DNA from: Synechococcales cyanobacterium VAR_4_metabat_354
GTDB lineage: Bacteria > Cyanobacteriota > Cyanobacteriia > Cyanobacteriales > Chamaesiphonaceae
NCBI GenBank assembly: GCA_031414775.1
Contig: JANOQI010000033.1
Location: forward strand, 30,581-94,580
Direction of reading: 5' to 3'
DNA: 64,000 bases
Shown: piece by piece, positions 13,531 to 20,576 of the stretch
Layout of the letters: each line of letters opens with the position of its first letter
Position numbering within the stretch: the stretch's first letter is position 1
The notes under the pieces: model-generated
Database searches by the model: none
What the model saw: only the letters and a program-made list of their open reading frames with translations
What the model was told of the DNA's origin: nothing
Made by a program: the position numbers and the translations under genes

Positions 13531-13634
13531 AGCAAGATAAATTAAAAGTCCAATCCTATCATGGAAGTTTTGACTGGTTGGAGATCTGTGATCCATCAGG
13601 TATGATATTTGGAAGCTTTTGTCGATGCAATCCT

Positions 13635-14300
13635 GTGCAAATACCACATTTCTTTGAAGCCGATCACGAATTGATTCGCTCCCTAAGGTCTTCCAGTGAT
13701 ACTGAATTGATTCAAGGCTGTTGCCAAGAGATGGATCAAGCTAAGTTTTTTACGGCTTTTTTCTGTCGCTATAGCGCGGTGACCTACAGTATTTTTCAAC
13801 ATGTCTCTAGTTCTCAGATTCAGGTAGACTATACATTTGCCAGAGCTTGGCAACACATTTTTGAACGCATTCAGCAGCTTGACGAGCAAAGAATAAACAA
13901 TACTGTTTGGCAAAATTGGGTAGTGGATATCGCTGGCAATTTTTTAGATAACTTCCAAGTGCCACCAATAGAGGAAATTCATTACCAGCTAGCAACTGTG
14001 TCGCCCCCATTACTCTGTTATGTGCAAAGATCGTTGAATTTGATGCAACCTCTGTTACGACTAATGCTGATGATGGATAAACATTGGCATTGGTCAGCAT
14101 CGAGCATTGCCAGCCATTTAAGAGCCGAGGGTGAACAATTTGAGGATAGCGATTTGCCGCTGTATTTAGCCGAGAGCCAAAAGGCTTTTGAGAAAACACT
14201 CCCGATCGATCTCCACGAAATCTATGGAGAATCAGCGGCGATGGATTTTGATATTAGTACGTCTGGGGATATTGTTGATCGCAGCTCAACCAAACAATAG
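13635..14300 (+). CDS. Divergent sigma-70/ECF-like protein of cyanobacteria
   Basis: GTG start QIPHFFEADH; region-2-like FTAFFCRY...FARAWQHIF; region-4-like RSLNLMQPLLRLML...WSASSIA. Confidence 0.55.
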   Translation: MQIPHFFEADHELIRSLRSSSDTELIQGCCQEMDQAKFFTAFFCRYSAVTYSIFQHVSSSQIQVDYTFARAWQHIFERIQQLDEQRINNTVWQNWVVDIAGNFLDNFQVPPIEEIHYQLATVSPPLLCYVQRSLNLMQPLLRLMLMMDKHWHWSASSIASHLRAEGEQFEDSDLPLYLAESQKAFEKTLPIDLHEIYGESAAMDFDISTSGDIVDRSSTKQ

Positions 14301-14311
14301 TCCATCACAAA

Positions 14312-15268
14312 TCAACTCATCGCTAGCATCCGTTGAATCGGCATTAAGGCTAATTGTTGAATCTCGGTGGGTATGGTAATTTCTGGGGTTCGATCGCGTA
14401 GTGCTAAATACACTTTTTCGAGGGTATTCAGTCGCATGTAAGGACATTCATTGCAGTTGCAATTATTGGCATCGGGGGGCGCGGGAATATATTCTTTATC
14501 GGGTCTGGCCTTCTGCATTTGGTGAATAATCCCTGGTTCGGTCACCACAATAAAACTTTGATAATCATCTTGCTGGGTAAATTTCAAGAGTGCACTGGTC
14601 GAACCAATAAAATCAGCATGGCGCAGCACCGGTTCTTCGCATTCCGGGTGAGCAATTACGGCGGCGGTAGGATGTTGAATCTTCAACTGCACCAACTTTT
14701 TTTCAGAAAAAGTCTCATGGACAATGCAACTGCCTTGCCACAGAACTAAATCCCGCCCCGCTTGCTGAGCGACATAGCGACCCAGGTTGCGATCGGGTGC
14801 AAAAATAATTCCTTGCTCTGGGGCGATTTGCTGGACGATTTTCACCGCATTGGAGCTAGTACAAATAATGTCGCTGAGCGCCTTAATCTCCGCCGTACAG
14901 TTAATGTAAGAAATCACCACATGGTCGGGGTGCTGAGCTTTAAAAGCTGCAAACTTATCCGGTGGGCAGCTATCGGCCAAGGAACAACCAGCTTCTAGAT
15001 CTGGCAATAGCACTAGCTTGTGGGGATTAAGAATTTTGGCCGTTTCGGCCATGAAATGTACCCCGGCAAACAAAATTACATCAGCGGGAGTGTCCGCTGC
15101 TCGCCGCGATAGCTCTAAGGAATCACCAATAAAGTCGGCGATGTCTTGAATTTCGGATTCTTGGTAGTAGTGCGCCAAAATCACGGCGTTGAGTTCTTGC
15201 TTGAGCGATCGAATTGCCCCGACTAAATCGGTCGGAATTTGGTTGACTGAGCGGTTGGTAACAAACAT
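14312..15268 (-). CDS. nadA: Quinolinate synthase
   Basis: ILAHYYQ, GVHFMAE, AGCSLA, CTSSNA, AHPEC, CPYM. Confidence 0.96.
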
Positions 15269-15605
15269 GGCTGAGGAGTGGCAAAATCGTTATTTTTTAA
15301 TTATAGTGGATTTCACCAAAAAGCCAAGTGATTCTGCTCAGTTCATGACTCTCTGCCCAGGCGACCAATGCTATCCCAAAATTATTTACGCTGCCTGTAA
15401 CAGTCAAGGCATTCCACATTTTTTATTAAATTTTGAGAGAACATACTTTTTCTTACTGACTATATTAGTATTTTCTATATATAATTCTTTTTAATCATAA
15501 AATCATTTTTATTTACTTATAAACTATATTAGTAGTTAGATATAGCATTCACATGGGACTTGTTCGTGAGTTGACTTCTGTTAATTTTGAATGAAGAGTT
15601 TGAGC

Positions 15606-16046
15606 ATGGAAATTACTACTTTGACTGCTTTTATTAGTCCCTTTTTGCCATTTTTGTTGAAACTGGGCGGCAAGGCGCTGGAAAAATCGACGGAATCGGC
15701 CTCGGGCAAGTTTGGGGAGGCGGCGTTTGCGAAAGCCCAGGCGGTTTGGGGAAAGTTGGAGCCAAAGGTGGAGGCGAAGGAAGCAGCCAAAGAGGCCGCG
15801 ATCGATCTAGCAAATAATCCAGATGATCAGGATTTACAGGCGGCGCTGCGGGTGCAGTTGAAGAAGTTGTTGGAACAGGATGAGGAGTTATTTAGAGAGA
15901 TCGAGCAGATTCTGGCAGAAGATACGCCGGATGGTACTTCTGGCACCCAAATTGTGCAAAATGTCACGGGTAATCAAAACCTGGTCATCGGTCAAATGAT
16001 GGGTGGTAAGGTGATTGGCAATATTTCTGGCGATGTGACGATGTAA
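15606..16046 (+). CDS. Bell/HeLL-like helical effector with C-terminal amyloid-like motif
   Basis: N-terminal hydrophobic helix FISPFLPFLLKLG, helical body (..W.KL....A..DLANNPDD.D..AALRVQLKKLL), C-terminal QIVQNVTGNQNLVIGQMMGGKVIGNISGDVTM. Confidence 0.7.
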   Translation: MEITTLTAFISPFLPFLLKLGGKALEKSTESASGKFGEAAFAKAQAVWGKLEPKVEAKEAAKEAAIDLANNPDDQDLQAALRVQLKKLLEQDEELFREIEQILAEDTPDGTSGTQIVQNVTGNQNLVIGQMMGGKVIGNISGDVTM

Positions 16047-16071
16047 TTGTAAATGAGCCTGGAGAAAATTT

Positions 16072-18081
16072 ATGGCAGATCTAGTCCCTAATCCATCTAG
16101 CGATGATTCAAATTCAAGATCTCAGAATCAGCAAAATATTGAGGGTAATGAAAATCAAGTTATTGGTGAGGTGATAGACGGTACCGCAATCCACACAGTC
16201 AGCGGTAATGTTATTTATAACTATTATTATCGGAAAGAAATACCGATTGAAAATACCACTGAATCTGCTGAGACCGCTCTACTTCCTTGTCCTTATCGAG
16301 GTTTGTCTCACTTTGAGCCGGGGGATGCGAAATATTTTTTTGGCCGGGAAAGCTTTGTGGAAGAATTAGTCGAGGCAACGCAAACCCGTAATTTTATTGC
16401 TCTGCTGGGGGCTTCGGGAAGTGGTAAGTCTTCGGTGGTTTTTGCAGGATTAGTTCCTAAATTGCAACAGGCTGGTCATTGGCAGTTTACCCATTTTCGG
16501 CCCGGTTCAGATCCTTTCCATACACTGGCTTTAGCACTAATTCCGCTTTACACAAAGAATTTGGATGAAACGGAACAAATACGTCAATCTCGTAATTTAG
16601 CTGGCTATTTTCGGACGGGAGAGGTTTTATTAGCTGATGTTTTTGCTCAAATTCAGCAGAATTTTCCAAATGATCGAGTATTGCTAATTGCCGATCAATT
16701 TGAGGAACTCTATACCCTCTGCAAAGATGAGACTACCAGCGATTTCCTTAGTATATTACTGGCTGGTATTGATAAAACCCCCTTTGCCCCAGTACTCGTG
16801 GCAACGATGCGGGCAGATTTTTTAGGCAATGCCCTTTCCTCTAAACACTTTGCGGATGTGTTGAAGAATGCTGACCTAAAACTGGGCCCGATGAATCGGG
16901 AAGAACTAACAGAGGCAATCAGTAAACCCGCAAAAATGGCAAGGCATCCCTTAGATTTAAGTACAATCAATCTATTAATCGAGCAGACCGCAGATCGGGC
17001 AGGAACTTTGCCTTTGCTCCAGTTTGCTCTGACCCAAATTTGGGAAGGTTTAGCAGCAGGAACAACACCCGCAGAGACGCTCAGATTGATCGGTGGTGTT
17101 GGTGGGGCTTTAGCTCGCAAAGCTCAAGATATTTATGACAAACTTACCTCTGACAAAAAAAAAATTGCACAGCGGGTGTTTTTGAGTTTGGTGCAGTTGG
17201 GGGAAGGAGACAAGACAACTTGTCGTCAGGTGAAGATAAAAAACTTGGTTTCAAAACAAAATAGTCTAGATCTCTTGCAGGAGACGATCTATCTGTTTGC
17301 TAGCCCTGATGCTCGGTTGATTACCTTGGCAAATGATGGGGATGCAGAAACTGCTGAAATAACTCATGAGGCATTATTTGACAACTGGCAGCAGTTAAAA
17401 AACTGGCTGAAGGGTAGTCGTGAATATCTATGGACTCGGCAGCGGTTAGATGATGCGATAGAAACTTGGGAAAGACGTAATCGACCAGAAGGAAGCTTAT
17501 GGCAAGCGCAGGATTTAGAATCTCTGCGAAACTTTTATAAACATGCTGGCATTGACATGACACAGCGGCAAATTTATTTCTTTAATGCCTCAAAGCAATC
17601 TGCAAAATGGAAGAAAGTTAAAGATATATCACCATATTGTATGTTTGGCGCGTTAATCACATTATGTTTCTTTTGGGTAACAGATGTTGAATACATTACA
17701 GCTAAAATTCAGAATGAAAACACGTTTTTTGTTAAAAAGCCAACATCTGGAAAGGATAAATATTATTATGATTTACTCCGCTTAGTACTTCGTGAAGCGC
17801 TCCCGGGTAAAAAAATAGAATTAAAACTTAGAAAAGCAAATTCTTCTCAAGGAGAAGCGACAATTGCACTAAATACAGATGCAATAGATCTTAAGAACCG
17901 AGCAAATAAAATCAAACTGGATATTGATTGGATGATGGGAAACGATGACAGGCGTTCACAAGCAAAGAATATAAATTTTCCACTTACATTTGGATTGCTA
18001 TCTCATAGATTATGTCTTGTACGTAACAATGACTTTGAATTTCGGAAGATATCTAATAAAAATTTATTCCTCAAAAAATAA
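16072..18081 (+). CDS. nSTAND1 (NLR-like) NTPase with N-terminal amyloid-like motif, TM helix and first half of a periplasmic-binding-like domain
   Basis: CPYRGLSHF..FFGRE, Walker A GASGSGKSS (16408), Walker B LIADQFEELYT, LPLLQFAL, HEALFDNW; TM ISPYCMFGALITLCFFWVT (~17626-17682). Confidence 0.85.
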   Translation: MADLVPNPSSDDSNSRSQNQQNIEGNENQVIGEVIDGTAIHTVSGNVIYNYYYRKEIPIENTTESAETALLPCPYRGLSHFEPGDAKYFFGRESFVEELVEATQTRNFIALLGASGSGKSSVVFAGLVPKLQQAGHWQFTHFRPGSDPFHTLALALIPLYTKNLDETEQIRQSRNLAGYFRTGEVLLADVFAQIQQNFPNDRVLLIADQFEELYTLCKDETTSDFLSILLAGIDKTPFAPVLVATMRADFLGNALSSKHFADVLKNADLKLGPMNREELTEAISKPAKMARHPLDLSTINLLIEQTADRAGTLPLLQFALTQIWEGLAAGTTPAETLRLIGGVGGALARKAQDIYDKLTSDKKKIAQRVFLSLVQLGEGDKTTCRQVKIKNLVSKQNSLDLLQETIYLFASPDARLITLANDGDAETAEITHEALFDNWQQLKNWLKGSREYLWTRQRLDDAIETWERRNRPEGSLWQAQDLESLRNFYKHAGIDMTQRQIYFFNASKQSAKWKKVKDISPYCMFGALITLCFFWVTDVEYITAKIQNENTFFVKKPTSGKDKYYYDLLRLVLREALPGKKIELKLRKANSSQGEATIALNTDAIDLKNRANKIKLDIDWMMGNDDRRSQAKNINFPLTFGLLSHRLCLVRNNDFEFRKISNKNLFLKK

Positions 18082-18665
18082 TCATAACACAAGTAACGAG
18101 TTGGCCTGACACAGCTATTTTGAGAAGTAATGATAAGTTGACATTAAAGCAGACACAAAACCAAAAAGAATCAGAAAAGCAACTATTAAATCGTCAAGCC
18201 AATTGTTTTTTGCGTGGTTTGAGCGAGATATATATTGAACAAAAAGAACTTAAGGAAAGCGAGAAAAAAGATTTCTCGATATTAAACACTTTTTTCTTTC
18301 AATATCATTCTCCCATAAATTTCTATGTTGCGAAAGACAATGAATATTTGCATGACAAAATAGATAGAGGATTGGAAAAAATATTAGAATCCGGGCAACT
18401 ATTATGTATATACAAACATCATTATGGCGAGTTTATAAAGAGGGCAAAGTTAAAAGAAGATAATAGAATTTTTCTTGGCAGTGGCAAACCAGAGAAAACA
18501 GAGCATCCGGAGTTATATCTAGATTTCACAAAGGATTATACAAACATTTTTAAAGATATAGAGGAAAAACAGACTTCTCAATTGACTCCATCAAAATGTA
18601 ATTCCTTGATTGAAAACCTAGAACATGAAAACGAACAACTATATCCAAATAAATTAAAAAAATAG
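18078..18665 (+). pseudogene. -1 frame continuation of the NTPase gene: C-terminal half of a substrate-binding-protein-like domain
   Basis: Frame open from 18060 reads IIITQVTSWPDTAILRSN...CFLRGLSEI...YHSPINFYVAKDNEYLHDKIDRGLEKILESG; no convincing own start. Confidence 0.65.
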
Positions 18666-18916
18666 CCATGCCGCCTCCGCTATAGGGGCATCACAATGAA
18701 AACTAGTGAACATTTCGGGCACACAGTTTCTTAGAGAACAACACCAAAGTTAGTAAAAGCAACAAGCACCTCAGCGATAGCATGGCACCAAAAAACAGTA
18801 ACCAGACTTTGAAAATTCATGACAGAGCCGCCCCTTTTAGCCAATTGATCTAAATTCCCATATTGCGATTCAGCCAGATCTAAAGGTCGATCGAAATCAG
18901 GCGATCAGTGATAATT

Positions 18917-19177
18917 TCAATTGCCTTCTATATATTGACGTAAAACGTTGTTTATGAGGGTTTTATACTGTTCGCCTTGCGCCTGAAACCATTTTTGCAC
19001 GTCCGGATCAAGCTGAACTAGGTTATGTGCTTGTTCTGCTGGAATACGTAAAGTAGCCCGTTCAAAAAATTCGTCAGTTAGCGGTGGAATGTCTGAGTAG
19101 TCAATATTTTCTTCTGACTTCGACTCTAAAGCTGCCCAATTAGTACGAGAGGTACTGTTCAAATTTTTTTTGTTCAT
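18917..19177 (-). CDS. BrnA-like antitoxin
   Basis: IDYSDIPPLTDEFF, LDPDVQKWFQAQGEQYKTLINNVLRQY. Confidence 0.85.
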   Translation of the reverse strand: MNKKNLNSTSRTNWAALESKSEENIDYSDIPPLTDEFFERATLRIPAEQAHNLVQLDPDVQKWFQAQGEQYKTLINNVLRQYIEGN

Positions 19178-19418
19178 GACGATTGGCTCTTCGCGCTGAA
19201 ATAATTCGAGTTACATCCTTGTGACGCTCTGTCCAGACTACCAATGCTATCCCAGAACCGAGAAAACCAATTCCGAACCAGCGATCTTCGCCATAATCAA
19301 AACGCTCATCTAGCTTAATCAGCATTTCCCCATCAAACATTGGAGGAACATCAGCAAAATCAATCTCATGTTTACGGATGTTTTCAAGGTTTTTTGCTTC
19401 GTCCCACTCAAATTGCAT
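19140..19418 (-). CDS. BrnT family ribonuclease toxin
   Basis: MQFEWDEAKNLENIRKH.IDF, YGEDRW, RIISARRA. Confidence 0.9.
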   Translation of the reverse strand: MQFEWDEAKNLENIRKHEIDFADVPPMFDGEMLIKLDERFDYGEDRWFGIGFLGSGIALVVWTERHKDVTRIISARRANRHEQKKFEQYLSY

Positions 19419-19523
19419 GAAGGATTAGGAATATGACAGACTGCACTAACTTCTTTCATTATCCCGCATTTACTTAGGCTAGATCTACCCTGCATAGTAT
19501 CGCCCTCAATTCCATTATCTACC

Positions 19524-20576
19524 TTAGAGATTCGGATAGAGCAAAATCTTATAGGTTTCCGGAGTAGGAGCCGAAGCTTGAGCCACCGCCTTAGCCAGAT
19601 CCTTCAGATGATACTTATCACTAATTAGCGCATCCACATCAATCCGCTGATTAAAAACAATATCCTGCGCCAAACCCTGCACCCGAAAAGAAGAACTATA
19701 ACTGCCCATCAAATCGATCTCCCGCTGGTACAAAACATTAGGATTGAGGGGAATAGTCACTTCATCCGGAAATTCCGCAAAAAACAAAATCTTGCCGCCC
19801 TTGCGCGTACAGTCCAAAGCCTGGAAAAAAGCCTTATCGCTGGACACAGCCAATAGACTAACATCCACGCCCATCCCGCCAGTCAGATCCTGAATCTTGC
19901 TAGCCAAGTCGGGGTCAGTCGCTAAAAAAGCCGCATCAGCTCCGATCGACAATGCCTTTTCTACCCGACTGGGAATTAAATCAGTCGTAATCGCCCGGCC
20001 ACCAAAATACTTCACCAACATCGCAAACATTAAGCCGATCGGACCTGCCCCGGTAATCAAAACCGTATCCCCGGCCTGGATATTAGCCTTCTTCACCGCT
20101 TTTAAACAGCAATTGGTGGGTTCTACAAAACTAGCCTGCTCAAAAGTAATCCGGTCAGGAATCGCAATCAAGCCGCCATTTTGGACAATATGCCCCGGCA
20201 CTTTTACATAATCAGCAAAACCACCACCACTGGGCGTAAACCCGGCTGTTGTTGTGACTTGCTTATAGACATCACACATCGAATAGTTTTCGTGCAGACA
20301 ATAAGCACAGCGCATACAGGGAATATGGTGCATCACCACCACCCGCTGACCCACTTGCCAATTTTGCACGTCCGCCCCAACTTGCGAAATCACCCCCGCC
20401 GTTTCGTGACCAAAAATTCGGGGCGGTGCATAAAGCGGATAGCGAATTTTTTTGATATCTGATTGGCACAAGCCCACTACCTTTACGGCTACTAGTACTT
20501 CATCAGCAGCTAATTCTGGGACTGGTAATTCCTCATAGCTGAGTTGATTTACACCGCGAAATACTTGTGCCTTCAT
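19524..20576 (-). CDS. Zinc-dependent alcohol dehydrogenase family protein
   Basis: GLCQSD, GHE, CMRCAYC..C, GAGPIG. Confidence 0.9.
   Translation of the reverse strand: MKAQVFRGVNQLSYEELPVPELAADEVLVAVKVVGLCQSDIKKIRYPLYAPPRIFGHETAGVISQVGADVQNWQVGQRVVVMHHIPCMRCAYCLHENYSMCDVYKQVTTTAGFTPSGGGFADYVKVPGHIVQNGGLIAIPDRITFEQASFVEPTNCCLKAVKKANIQAGDTVLITGAGPIGLMFAMLVKYFGGRAITTDLIPSRVEKALSIGADAAFLATDPDLASKIQDLTGGMGVDVSLLAVSSDKAFFQALDCTRKGGKILFFAEFPDEVTIPLNPNVLYQREIDLMGSYSSSFRVQGLAQDIVFNQRIDVDALISDKYHLKDLAKAVAQASAPTPETYKILLYPNL

Follow-up and report, generated by a model that had tools for sequence, protein, structure and literature searches.

A Bell-type effector gene and an nSTAND1 receptor gene coupled by a shared amyloid-like motif in a Chamaesiphonaceae cyanobacterium

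Introduction

Do two neighbouring cyanobacterial genes, one for a small helical protein and one for a large nucleoside triphosphatase (NTPase), form a signalling pair whose products communicate through a short amyloid-like motif that both of them carry? The question was raised by a stretch of 64,000 nucleotides (the window) from Synechococcales cyanobacterium VAR_4_metabat_354, in which a first-pass annotation had singled out a small effector gene with an adjacent NTPase gene and proposed a prion-like death or defence switch. That immune receptors can signal to death effectors through amyloid is well established for fungi and mammals and, from work of 2020-2024 onward, for bacteria too. We followed up the two genes within their genome and across homologous loci. 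The features of the pair are as follows, with ORF standing for open reading frame, AF2 for AlphaFold2 and HMM for hidden Markov model.

15606..16046, + strand: Bell-type effector gene, 146 residues from MEITTL; an in-frame ATG at 15591 would give 5 extra residues
15609..15668, + strand: N-terminal hydrophobic helix of the effector, EITTLTAFISPFLPFLLKLG, residues 2-21, by hydropathy and AF2; putatively membrane-targeting
15606..15917, + strand: globular helical (Bell) domain of the effector, residues 1-104, as predicted by AF2
15948..16043, + strand: effector-side amyloid-like motif, QIVQNVTGNQNLVIGQMMGGKVIGNISGDVTM, by alignment, composition and motif HMM
16072..18081, + strand: ORF of the nSTAND1 NTPase receptor, 669 residues, shortened by a frameshift, by Pfam PF20703 and alignment to the intact relative P0272
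16123..16218, + strand: receptor-side motif, QNQQNIEGNENQVIGEVIDGTAIHTVSGNVIY, residues 18-49, by alignment, genome search and motif HMM
16291..17490, + strand: nSTAND1 NTPase domain, residues 74-473, by Pfam

The two gene products share a terminal motif

The effector and NTPase ORFs are collinear on the + strand (15591/15606..16046 and 16072..18081), and the gap between them (16047-16071) has the 25 nt given in the first-pass annotation. The central claim of that annotation was an ungapped match with 14/32 identities between the tail of the effector (15948-16043) and the head of the NTPase (16123-16218). Both 32-mers translate exactly as written there, and a Smith-Waterman alignment (BLOSUM62) widened the match to 36 residues with a score of 82. 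When the last 40 residues of the effector were shuffled and aligned to the first 70 residues of the NTPase, 0/5000 shuffles reached this score (mean 24.3, standard deviation 4.9, maximum 51). The result was the same with both sequences shuffled (0/5000, maximum 46).

The own genome (3.56 Mb, 64 contigs, 99.96% complete) was searched as a set of 12,278 six-frame ORFs. The best non-self match of the effector tail was the adjacent NTPase with an E-value of 3.7e-4, and the sole non-self match of the NTPase head was the effector (E 3e-4). A motif HMM was built from 30 instances from other loci with the window excluded. It detected three carriers in this genome: the effector (E 1.1e-11), a Bell paralogue on contig C30 (E 2.4e-8) and the NTPase head (E 5.4e-7). 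The fourth-ranked match was already at E 0.77. We conclude that the effector and receptor genes are coupled through the shared motif.

The residues Q, N, G, V and I together account for 23/32 positions of the effector motif (72%) and 22/32 of the receptor motif (69%) vs 30% in the ORFs of the genome. K, P and L contribute 2/32 (6%) and 0/32, respectively, vs 20% in the ORFs. The enrichment and the depletion agree with the published bias of bacterial amyloid signalling sequences (BASS; 10.1101/2020.01.06.895854), and so do the 32 residues with their length of about 25 or more. A complex prediction with two receptor heads (residues 10-58) and two effector tails (residues 103-146) returned a score of 0.02 and a mark of 0.32, which is evidence neither way.

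The effector is a homologue of Bell proteins

Searches of the effector against Pfam, NCBIfam and PADLOC assigned it to no family; the best Pfam match was VG15 with an E-value of 0.16. Its helical domain shares 41% identity (E 1e-24) with the small protein encoded at a homologous locus, L056. The tail of this Bell protein is BASS9-type and matches Bell-side Ccya03 entries together with several UniProt-labelled entries of the PMC8086366 supplement, and the head of its NB-ARC neighbour matches the NLR-side cluster Cnlr26 of the same data set. Through its homology to the L056 protein, we assign the effector to the published Bell-domain family, and to this extent the Bell-type effector of the first-pass annotation is borne out.

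The effector family comprised 422 near-length proteins at E<=0.01 and 1303 clusters (50% identity) at E<=1e-3. Its members are mostly proteins of about 140 residues; among the best 150 clusters, 128 were at most 250 residues long. Most homologues of the effector have 146 residues and start with MD or ME. Bell proteins are characterized by a length of about 120-140 residues, a hydrophobic N-terminal helix and an acidic residue at position 2 or 3, and the effector, which begins M-E-I-T-T-L, has Glu at position 2. In an alignment of 64 homologues, the N-terminal consensus was MDIAxLTxFLxPFLPxLL with P12, L14, P15 and L17 invariant or nearly so.

A hydrophobic N-terminal helix, also part of the first-pass annotation, was found at residues 2-21. 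No other stretch of 19 residues in the protein is as hydrophobic as the one in this segment (Kyte-Doolittle 1.46), and AF2 placed a helix at residues 3-20. By analogy with related systems, it may act at the membrane. The AF2 model, calculated from the 64-homologue alignment, contained six DSSP helices within residues 3-104 with a mean predicted local distance difference test score (pLDDT) of 70. In blocks of 10 residues, the pLDDT was 56-68 for residues 21-40 and 83-90 in the rest of the helical part. Residues 109-146, which include the motif, were predicted as a disordered tail with a pLDDT below 50.

Bell domains are described as predicted five-helix bundles with a relation to HeLo, HeLL, MLKL and CC domains. 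Fold searches with this model gave a best Foldseek E-value of 1.3, with an Rx-CC domain at rank 4 (E 1.8), and a best VIA Z-score of 4.5, which is below the chance level for helical bundles. The lists from Foldseek PDB, VIA wide and a second look with VIA held no HeLo, MLKL or Bab entry. A search of the effector profile against PDB sequences returned designed proteins alone at E>=0.07. Because the fold searches were without significant match, we use the term Bell fold on the strength of sequence homology only. As a separate candidate, we considered that the effector might be EACC1, which was ruled out by the published description of EACC1 (PMC7159879).

Most homologous loci keep matching motifs

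The first-pass annotation had named the loss of matching motifs from homologous pairs as one outcome that would speak against it. We gathered 66 loci, 5 from reference genomes, 31 from metagenomes (scanned with a closer 18-row alignment) and 30 from a sample of 401 genomes of the phylum, and added the window and the C30 paralogue. The family profile yielded 67 frames. Ten were dropped, extending past the contig end or having a less than near-complete domain, which left 57; 8 of these had no downstream ORF by our criteria and 1 was a duplicate, leaving 48 non-redundant loci. A tail/head match was called significant when 0/400 shuffles reached its score with z>=5. By this measure, 31 of the 48 loci keep the match, including loci at which the class of the motif has switched. 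In the 401-genome sample, the Bell family occurred in 37 genomes and in 27 of 156 genera.

Across the 48 loci, cognate pairs had a mean score of 55.5 vs 34.0 for non-cognate pairs. The summed cognate score of 2665 lay above all 10,000 permutations (mean 1652, standard deviation 84), a test that is inflated by the kinship of the loci. The Bell domain carries at least seven unlike tail classes, each of which is mirrored on its own neighbour. We consider these mirrored classes, although qualitative, a stronger point than the permutation score. Within the motif class of the window, 16 loci could be compared in register and showed a cognate identity of 14.06 vs 12.51 of 32 positions (13/20,000 permutations); the window itself is outside this set, its effector having NL where the others have NQ. 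Individual changes were paired as well. At L043, the effector and the receptor motif each show Gly-to-Asn and Asn-to-Gly changes, and at L005 both have Arg-Asp in a place where the effectors of other loci carry Gly-Asn and their receptors vary.

Could the similarity of the two ends be a functionless by-product of duplication or gene conversion between neighbours? One protein looks like a natural recombinant: in P0130 (860 residues), a Bell-nSTAND1 fusion, the two parts meet at one hybrid motif that could have arisen by recombination of the effector and receptor copies. The distribution of the motif speaks against this origin in general. Loci with Bell domains of only 41-89% identity and with partners from five families have retained the match, and the motif classes switch on both sides together. 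Moreover, the Gly, Asn and Gln residues common to the two motifs do not vary in either of them, unlike the positions next to them, which drift. Gene conversion was already disfavoured, and we regard it as extremely improbable.

The partner in the 31 matched pairs was an nSTAND1 protein at 14 loci, NB-ARC at 9, and NACHT, CHAT (the neighbour at L019) and iSTAND at 1 each; at the remaining 5 loci it had no Pfam family or a weak TPR match alone. Relatives with the motif class of the window include some with NB-ARC, NACHT or WD40 partners. Fusions of the two parts were found in addition: Bell is joined directly to nSTAND1 in P0128, to NACHT-TPR in P0125 and, with the motif in between, to TIR in P0132. 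Seven proteins (P0121 and those of L006, L011, L014, L015, L022 and L023) are Bell-motif-CHAT fusions with an internal motif.

Some further arrangements were noted. The gene that follows the Bell-motif-CHAT fusion at L006, L022 and L023 still has a matching head. The order is CHAT-Bell-motif at L038, and L003 combines a Bell protein that has a partial motif with a DUF900 hydrolase. In P0130, the sensor part is a transmembrane (TM) helix, behind which there is a weak match to Peripla_BP_6/ANF_receptor (E 1e-4).

The CHAT domain, present in 7/9 fused forms scanned and in the motif-bearing partner at L019, brings in the idea that the Bell protein is activated by proteolysis like gasdermins and EACC1, with the motif as a recognition or cleavage segment. 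Small membrane effectors encoded beside caspase-like proteases are indeed activated by cleavage (10.1101/2025.11.14.688446). In the window, however, the 4.2-kb island that carries the pair encodes no protease, and a cleavage site would not need the copy of the motif on the NTPase itself. Activation by proteolysis therefore appears very unlikely to us.

A further explanation is that the motif is a homotypic adaptor which docks the effector on the oligomerised NTPase, by beta-strand augmentation or through a small shared fold like that of effector-associated domains (EADs), with no prion-like templating. nSTAND1 systems couple in such a manner via matching EADs of adjacent genes, and the adjacent copies are the most alike (PMC7159879, PMC8195603). 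A generic interface is also suggested by the ranking within the motif class, where the cognate sequence is rarely the best match (ranks 3-17), and docking could accommodate the internal position of the motif between Bell and CHAT or TIR domains. Yet the motif, with about 32 residues, low complexity, 70% Q/N/G/V/I, no Pro and predicted disorder, has the features of BASS rather than those of a folded, mostly alpha-helical EAD, and neither protein matched a Pfam EAD family at E<=1. Furthermore, BASS1, BASS3 and BASS11, which are motifs of the same kind, are published to form fibrils and prions (BASS11: 10.1101/2024.11.07.622273). We consider docking of this kind unlikely and prefer to read the motif as a BASS-type signalling element.

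The receptor is an nSTAND1 mosaic with a predicted membrane helix

The remaining features of the receptor gene are the following.

17626..17682, + strand: predicted single TM helix, ISPYCMFGALITLCFFWVT, residues 519-537, by hydropathy; conserved in P0271, P0272 and P0273
17683..18665, + strand: AT-rich putative sensor ectodomain, divided between two reading frames and with a weak likeness to solute-binding protein family 3, by GC content, Pfam, Atlas and relatives
18073..18081, + strand: frameshift site, an A6 run (18073-18078) followed by TAA, by sequence and three-frame translation
18087..18665, + strand: rest of the receptor sequence, read in the second frame (ORF list: 18120..18665, 181 residues), by alignment to relatives

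What had been described as an NLR-like NTPase turned out to be a STAND NTPase of the nSTAND1 clade. Pfam nSTAND1 (PF20703) matched residues 74-473 with an E-value of 5.1e-105 and 352.7 bits vs a cut-off of 27.1, covering positions 1-378 of the 379 in the profile. Pfam identified no NB-ARC, NACHT or repeat domain in the receptor, whereas the published pairs have NB-ARC or NACHT with WD or TPR. Three observations had escaped the first-pass annotation, namely the TM helix and ectodomain of the nSTAND1 protein, the frameshift in its gene, and the near absence of the motif class from the published BASS sets.

Residues 519-537 form the top hydropathy window of the protein (1.66), with KWKKVK before and TDVEY after it. 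According to the positive-inside rule, this would place the N-terminus inside and the C-terminus outside. The GC content drops to 0.31-0.33 across about 17600-18700 vs 0.42-0.46 upstream. In bins of 50 residues, receptor residues 1-500 were 38-88% identical to the nSTAND1-WD40 proteins of L001 and L002, two loci from genomes labelled as Chamaesiphon, and residues 501-650 were 14-24% identical to these proteins vs 54-64% to P0272 and P0271. The receptor is a mosaic of motif, nSTAND1, one membrane helix and an AT-rich ectodomain, in place of which close relatives have WD40. P0271 (879 residues) and P0272 (850 residues) are intact proteins with the order motif, nSTAND1, TM helix and ectodomain. 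Another relative from a metagenome, P0273 (418 residues), lacks the NTPase but has the complete ectodomain, the TM helix and, joined straight to this membrane sensor, the receptor-side motif.

With the C-terminal parts of P0271, P0272 and P0273, the ectodomain shares 53-59% identity. Its match to Pfam SBP_bac_3 (PF00497) had an E-value of 0.014 and 15.6 bits (gathering cut-off 26.4) and involved the second half only; Pfam found no SBP_bac_3 match in the intact relatives of the receptor. In Atlas, the ectodomain had a feature score of 0.93 with 17/30 matches in SBP_bac_3 clusters, and one source names P0272 under 'solute-binding proteins, family 3'. An Atlas search with receptor residues 500-669 gave no usable match. 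Taken together, the sequence comparisons suggest a weak likeness to solute-binding family 3. An AF2 model of P0273 from a 5-row alignment reached a mean pLDDT of 44.5. In it, residues 31-60 with the motif were drawn as four short beta-strands at pLDDT 26-38, to which we attach no evidential value.

The receptor gene is frameshifted at the A6 run in the genome of the window. The receptor ORF aligns to residues 18-665 of the 850-residue P0272 and ends exactly at 665, and ORF 18120..18665 carries the alignment to the receptor relatives onward with 53-59% identity over 92-93% of its length. In contigs of sequencing runs X7 and X8 from another study, one extra A behind 18072 (A7) keeps the frame open and gives an intact frame of 850 residues. 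The X7 contig has 5 other differences to the window across 2.1 kb. Run X1, a possible source of the window DNA, has A6. These comparisons are between contigs, in which minor variants would not show. Because the receptor is frameshifted where other samples have A7, the allele is possibly switched off; the off state may be a recent inactivation or one state of a slippage-prone tract. In run X5, one contig of low depth (4.2) joins 18078 to 18168 and skips 89 nt beside the frameshift site; this may represent another allele or another organism.

A candidate death or defence module

We think that the two genes probably form a module of the Bell/BASS type for cell death or defence. HET-S/NWD2, BASS1/3 and Bab/Agp are the models for what we propose on its amyloid formation and templating, its trigger and its attack on the membrane. 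The ectodomain would sense a cue, upon which the NTPase would oligomerise and gather the N-terminal motifs into a cross-beta nucleus. The nucleus would template the same fold on the near-identical C-terminal motif of the 146-residue Bell protein. Refolding of this tail would then free the hydrophobic N-terminal helix of the Bell protein, and the resulting membrane damage would kill the cell.

A more detailed scheme is advanced tentatively, and we hold it to be possible but doubtful. In it, the protein would be a transmembrane NLR-type receptor with the NTPase and the amyloid-like head in the cytoplasm and a solute-binding-like domain outside. A cue from outside the cell or from the periplasm (for example a metabolite, a signal of kin or of foreign origin, or a phage product of the envelope stage) would lead to prion-like templating and activation of the Bell protein. 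The sensor cassette would be swapped by recombination, with WD40 in exchange for TM helix and ectodomain, and slippage between A6 and A7 would act as a toggle.

Several findings weigh against a module of this type. The effector model showed no significant match to solved HeLo, MLKL or CC/pore-forming bundles (Foldseek PDB, VIA), and in the monomer model the motif appears as disorder only. The published family is defined by NB-ARC/NACHT partners with WD/TPR repeats, unlike the receptor found here. The receptor ORF is truncated, so the module could be inactive in this genome. The host looks like a small-genome, non-filamentous relative of Chamaesiphon, while these systems are linked to multicellular bacteria. 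Finally, 17 of the 48 homologous loci were without a significant match to the next gene; 9 of them were at the shuffle mean, six of these nine having NB-ARC or NB-ARC-TPR neighbours, and 5 were borderline. At L041, L045, L046, L051, L054 and L055, the Bell gene lies directly upstream of an NB-ARC or NB-ARC-TPR gene whose NTPase domain begins at about residue 50, and no motif is shared.

Genomic setting

Further features of the island are listed here.

15329..19524, no strand: accessory island of about 4.2 kb with effector, receptor and BrnT/BrnA, between nadA and the gene of a Zn-dependent alcohol dehydrogenase
18917..19177, - strand: BrnA antitoxin, by Pfam PF14384 (E 3.9e-10)
19140..19418, - strand: BrnT toxin, by Pfam PF04365 (E 2.7e-24)

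The pair is flanked on the left by nadA (14312..15268, minus strand). To the right of the receptor follow BrnA/BrnT (18917..19418, minus strand), the Zn-dependent dehydrogenase gene and a psaC-like ferredoxin gene. In two genomes of the same genus, whose NadA proteins are 97% and 94% identical, nadA is directly followed by adh and psaC. Homology to these genomes ends at 15328 and returns at 19525; therefore, the pair and the toxin-antitoxin module make up an accessory island of 4.2 kb. For experiments, the naturally occurring A6 and A7 alleles together with the sister genomes that lack the island offer ready comparisons of on, off and absent states.

Outside the island, an ORF of 240 residues at 13578-14300 on the + strand has no Pfam family. 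The same-genus genome G401 (L067, a locus that begins mid-gene) matches its C-terminal 143 residues with 100% identity, and a second one, G407 (L068), matches the last 111 with 75% identity.

The Bell paralogue of 140 residues lies at C30:13286-13708 on the minus strand (L071:5287-5709), and its tail has the motif class of the window (HMM E 2.4e-8). It is located 11 nt upstream of the gene of a 1137-residue protein without Pfam family (C30:9861-13274, minus strand; L071:1862-5275). The tail/head match of these two was marginal, with 75/400 shuffles reaching the score at standard gap costs and 28/1000 at gentler ones. Possibly, the nSTAND1 receptor in the window has this paralogue as a second client. 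By eye, contig C30 also holds ParA/ParB-like and Tn3-like genes.

A second nSTAND1 NTPase in the genome has 734 residues and a Q/N/G-rich head (C46:22493-24697, + strand). An upstream ORF of 191 residues with a G/N/Q-rich middle overlaps it (C46:21930-22505, + strand). The two were considered as a second motif pair and rejected, having no significant match (156/1000 shuffles reached the score).

Comparison with known systems

The core tetrad of RHIM and BASS3 has the pattern (I/V)-Q-(I/V/L/C)-G, which is consistent with the C03 entries of the BASS supplement. A regular expression for this tetrad found none in either 32-mer. One Bell-side entry of the PMC8086366 supplement, C01_s033, is by eye nearly identical to the window motif, and five other spellings of the motif core gave none in the part of that supplement examined. 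Cluster C01 would correspond to BASS1, judging from the cluster sizes in Table 1 of PMC8086366.

The screen of Dyrka et al. 2020 (10.1101/2020.01.06.895854) took in NB-ARC and NACHT neighbours alone. In that work, BASS7-10 are cyanobacterial and BASS3-6 shared, one pair comes from Chamaesiphon minutus, and the Bell/NLR pairs are mostly collinear neighbours. A full-text literature search, with the journal version of Dyrka et al. and Table S2 outside its reach, retrieved no paper joining nSTAND1 with amyloid or the Bell domain with STAND. The combination of nSTAND1, Bell and amyloid is likewise not mentioned in the parts covered of PMC10907252, PMC8195603 and PMC12261475.

The catalogue of bacterial amyloid signalling was built around NB-ARC/NACHT receptors only. 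With Bell proteins and paired motifs occurring beside the nSTAND1 clade as well (14/31 matched pairs), templated signalling may be open to more kinds of receptor than this catalogue includes. Where the receptor also has a membrane helix and, on the outside, a domain resembling ligand-binding ones, the trigger could be an outside signal and not a cytoplasmic phage protein.

HET-S/NWD2 of Podospora anserina combines a HeLo-domain protein, a HRAM motif present as two pseudo-repeats, and a receptor of the NACHT-WD type. The proposed logic is alike, in that the N-terminal motif of the NLR templates the C-terminal prion-forming domain of an adjacent helical pore-forming protein. Unlike the present pair, this system is fungal, and we found no sequence similarity and no significant structural similarity between its effector and that of the window.

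The EACC1-caspase systems (PMC7159879; 10.1101/2025.11.14.688446) resemble the locus by a small 5' gene for a membrane-active death effector followed by a large gene for a modular sensor, and they are enriched in multicellular bacteria. They differ in that EACC1 has a single TM helix with alpha+beta extensions, is activated by cleavage and has no shared terminal motif, and the island of the window has no protease. Closer in the receptor are the nSTAND1-EAD systems (Kaur et al. 2020/2021; PMC7159879, PMC8195603), which share the NTPase clade and a matching short module on adjacent products. Among the variable sensor modules noted for related systems are TM helices with periplasmic-binding-protein domains behind them. 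EADs, however, are folded and mostly alpha-helical, and the parts of these papers covered here do not tie nSTAND1 to Bell or amyloid motifs.

Bab/Agp (BASS11) of E. coli (Ibarlosa et al. 2024, 10.1101/2024.11.07.622273) is likewise encoded by adjacent genes in a variable island. It has a small, Bell-related helical effector whose C-terminal amyloid motif matches the N-terminus of the sensor, and spaced glycines that are likely strand breakers. Bab is shorter (109 residues) and its motif belongs to another family. For Bab/Agp, fibrils, phage defence and membrane relocalisation are proven by experiment, whereas the window pair is known from sequence alone.

The closest likeness is to the Bell/NLR pairs of BASS1-10 (10.1101/2020.01.06.895854). 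In these as in the window pair, a small protein of helical build has a hydrophobic helix at its N-terminus, an acidic residue 2 and, at its C-terminus, a G/N/Q/V/I-rich motif of some 30 residues; the STAND NTPase encoded by the next, collinear gene has this motif again at its N-terminus. Cyanobacteria are among the hosts of these pairs. The window pair departs from them by an nSTAND1 partner with TM helix and ectodomain where theirs are NB-ARC/NACHT proteins with WD or TPR, by a host that is not filamentous, and by a motif class found once (C01_s033) in the part of the data set examined. We conclude that the pair is a true member of a known mechanism class and is new in its receptor clade, its receptor architecture and its motif class.

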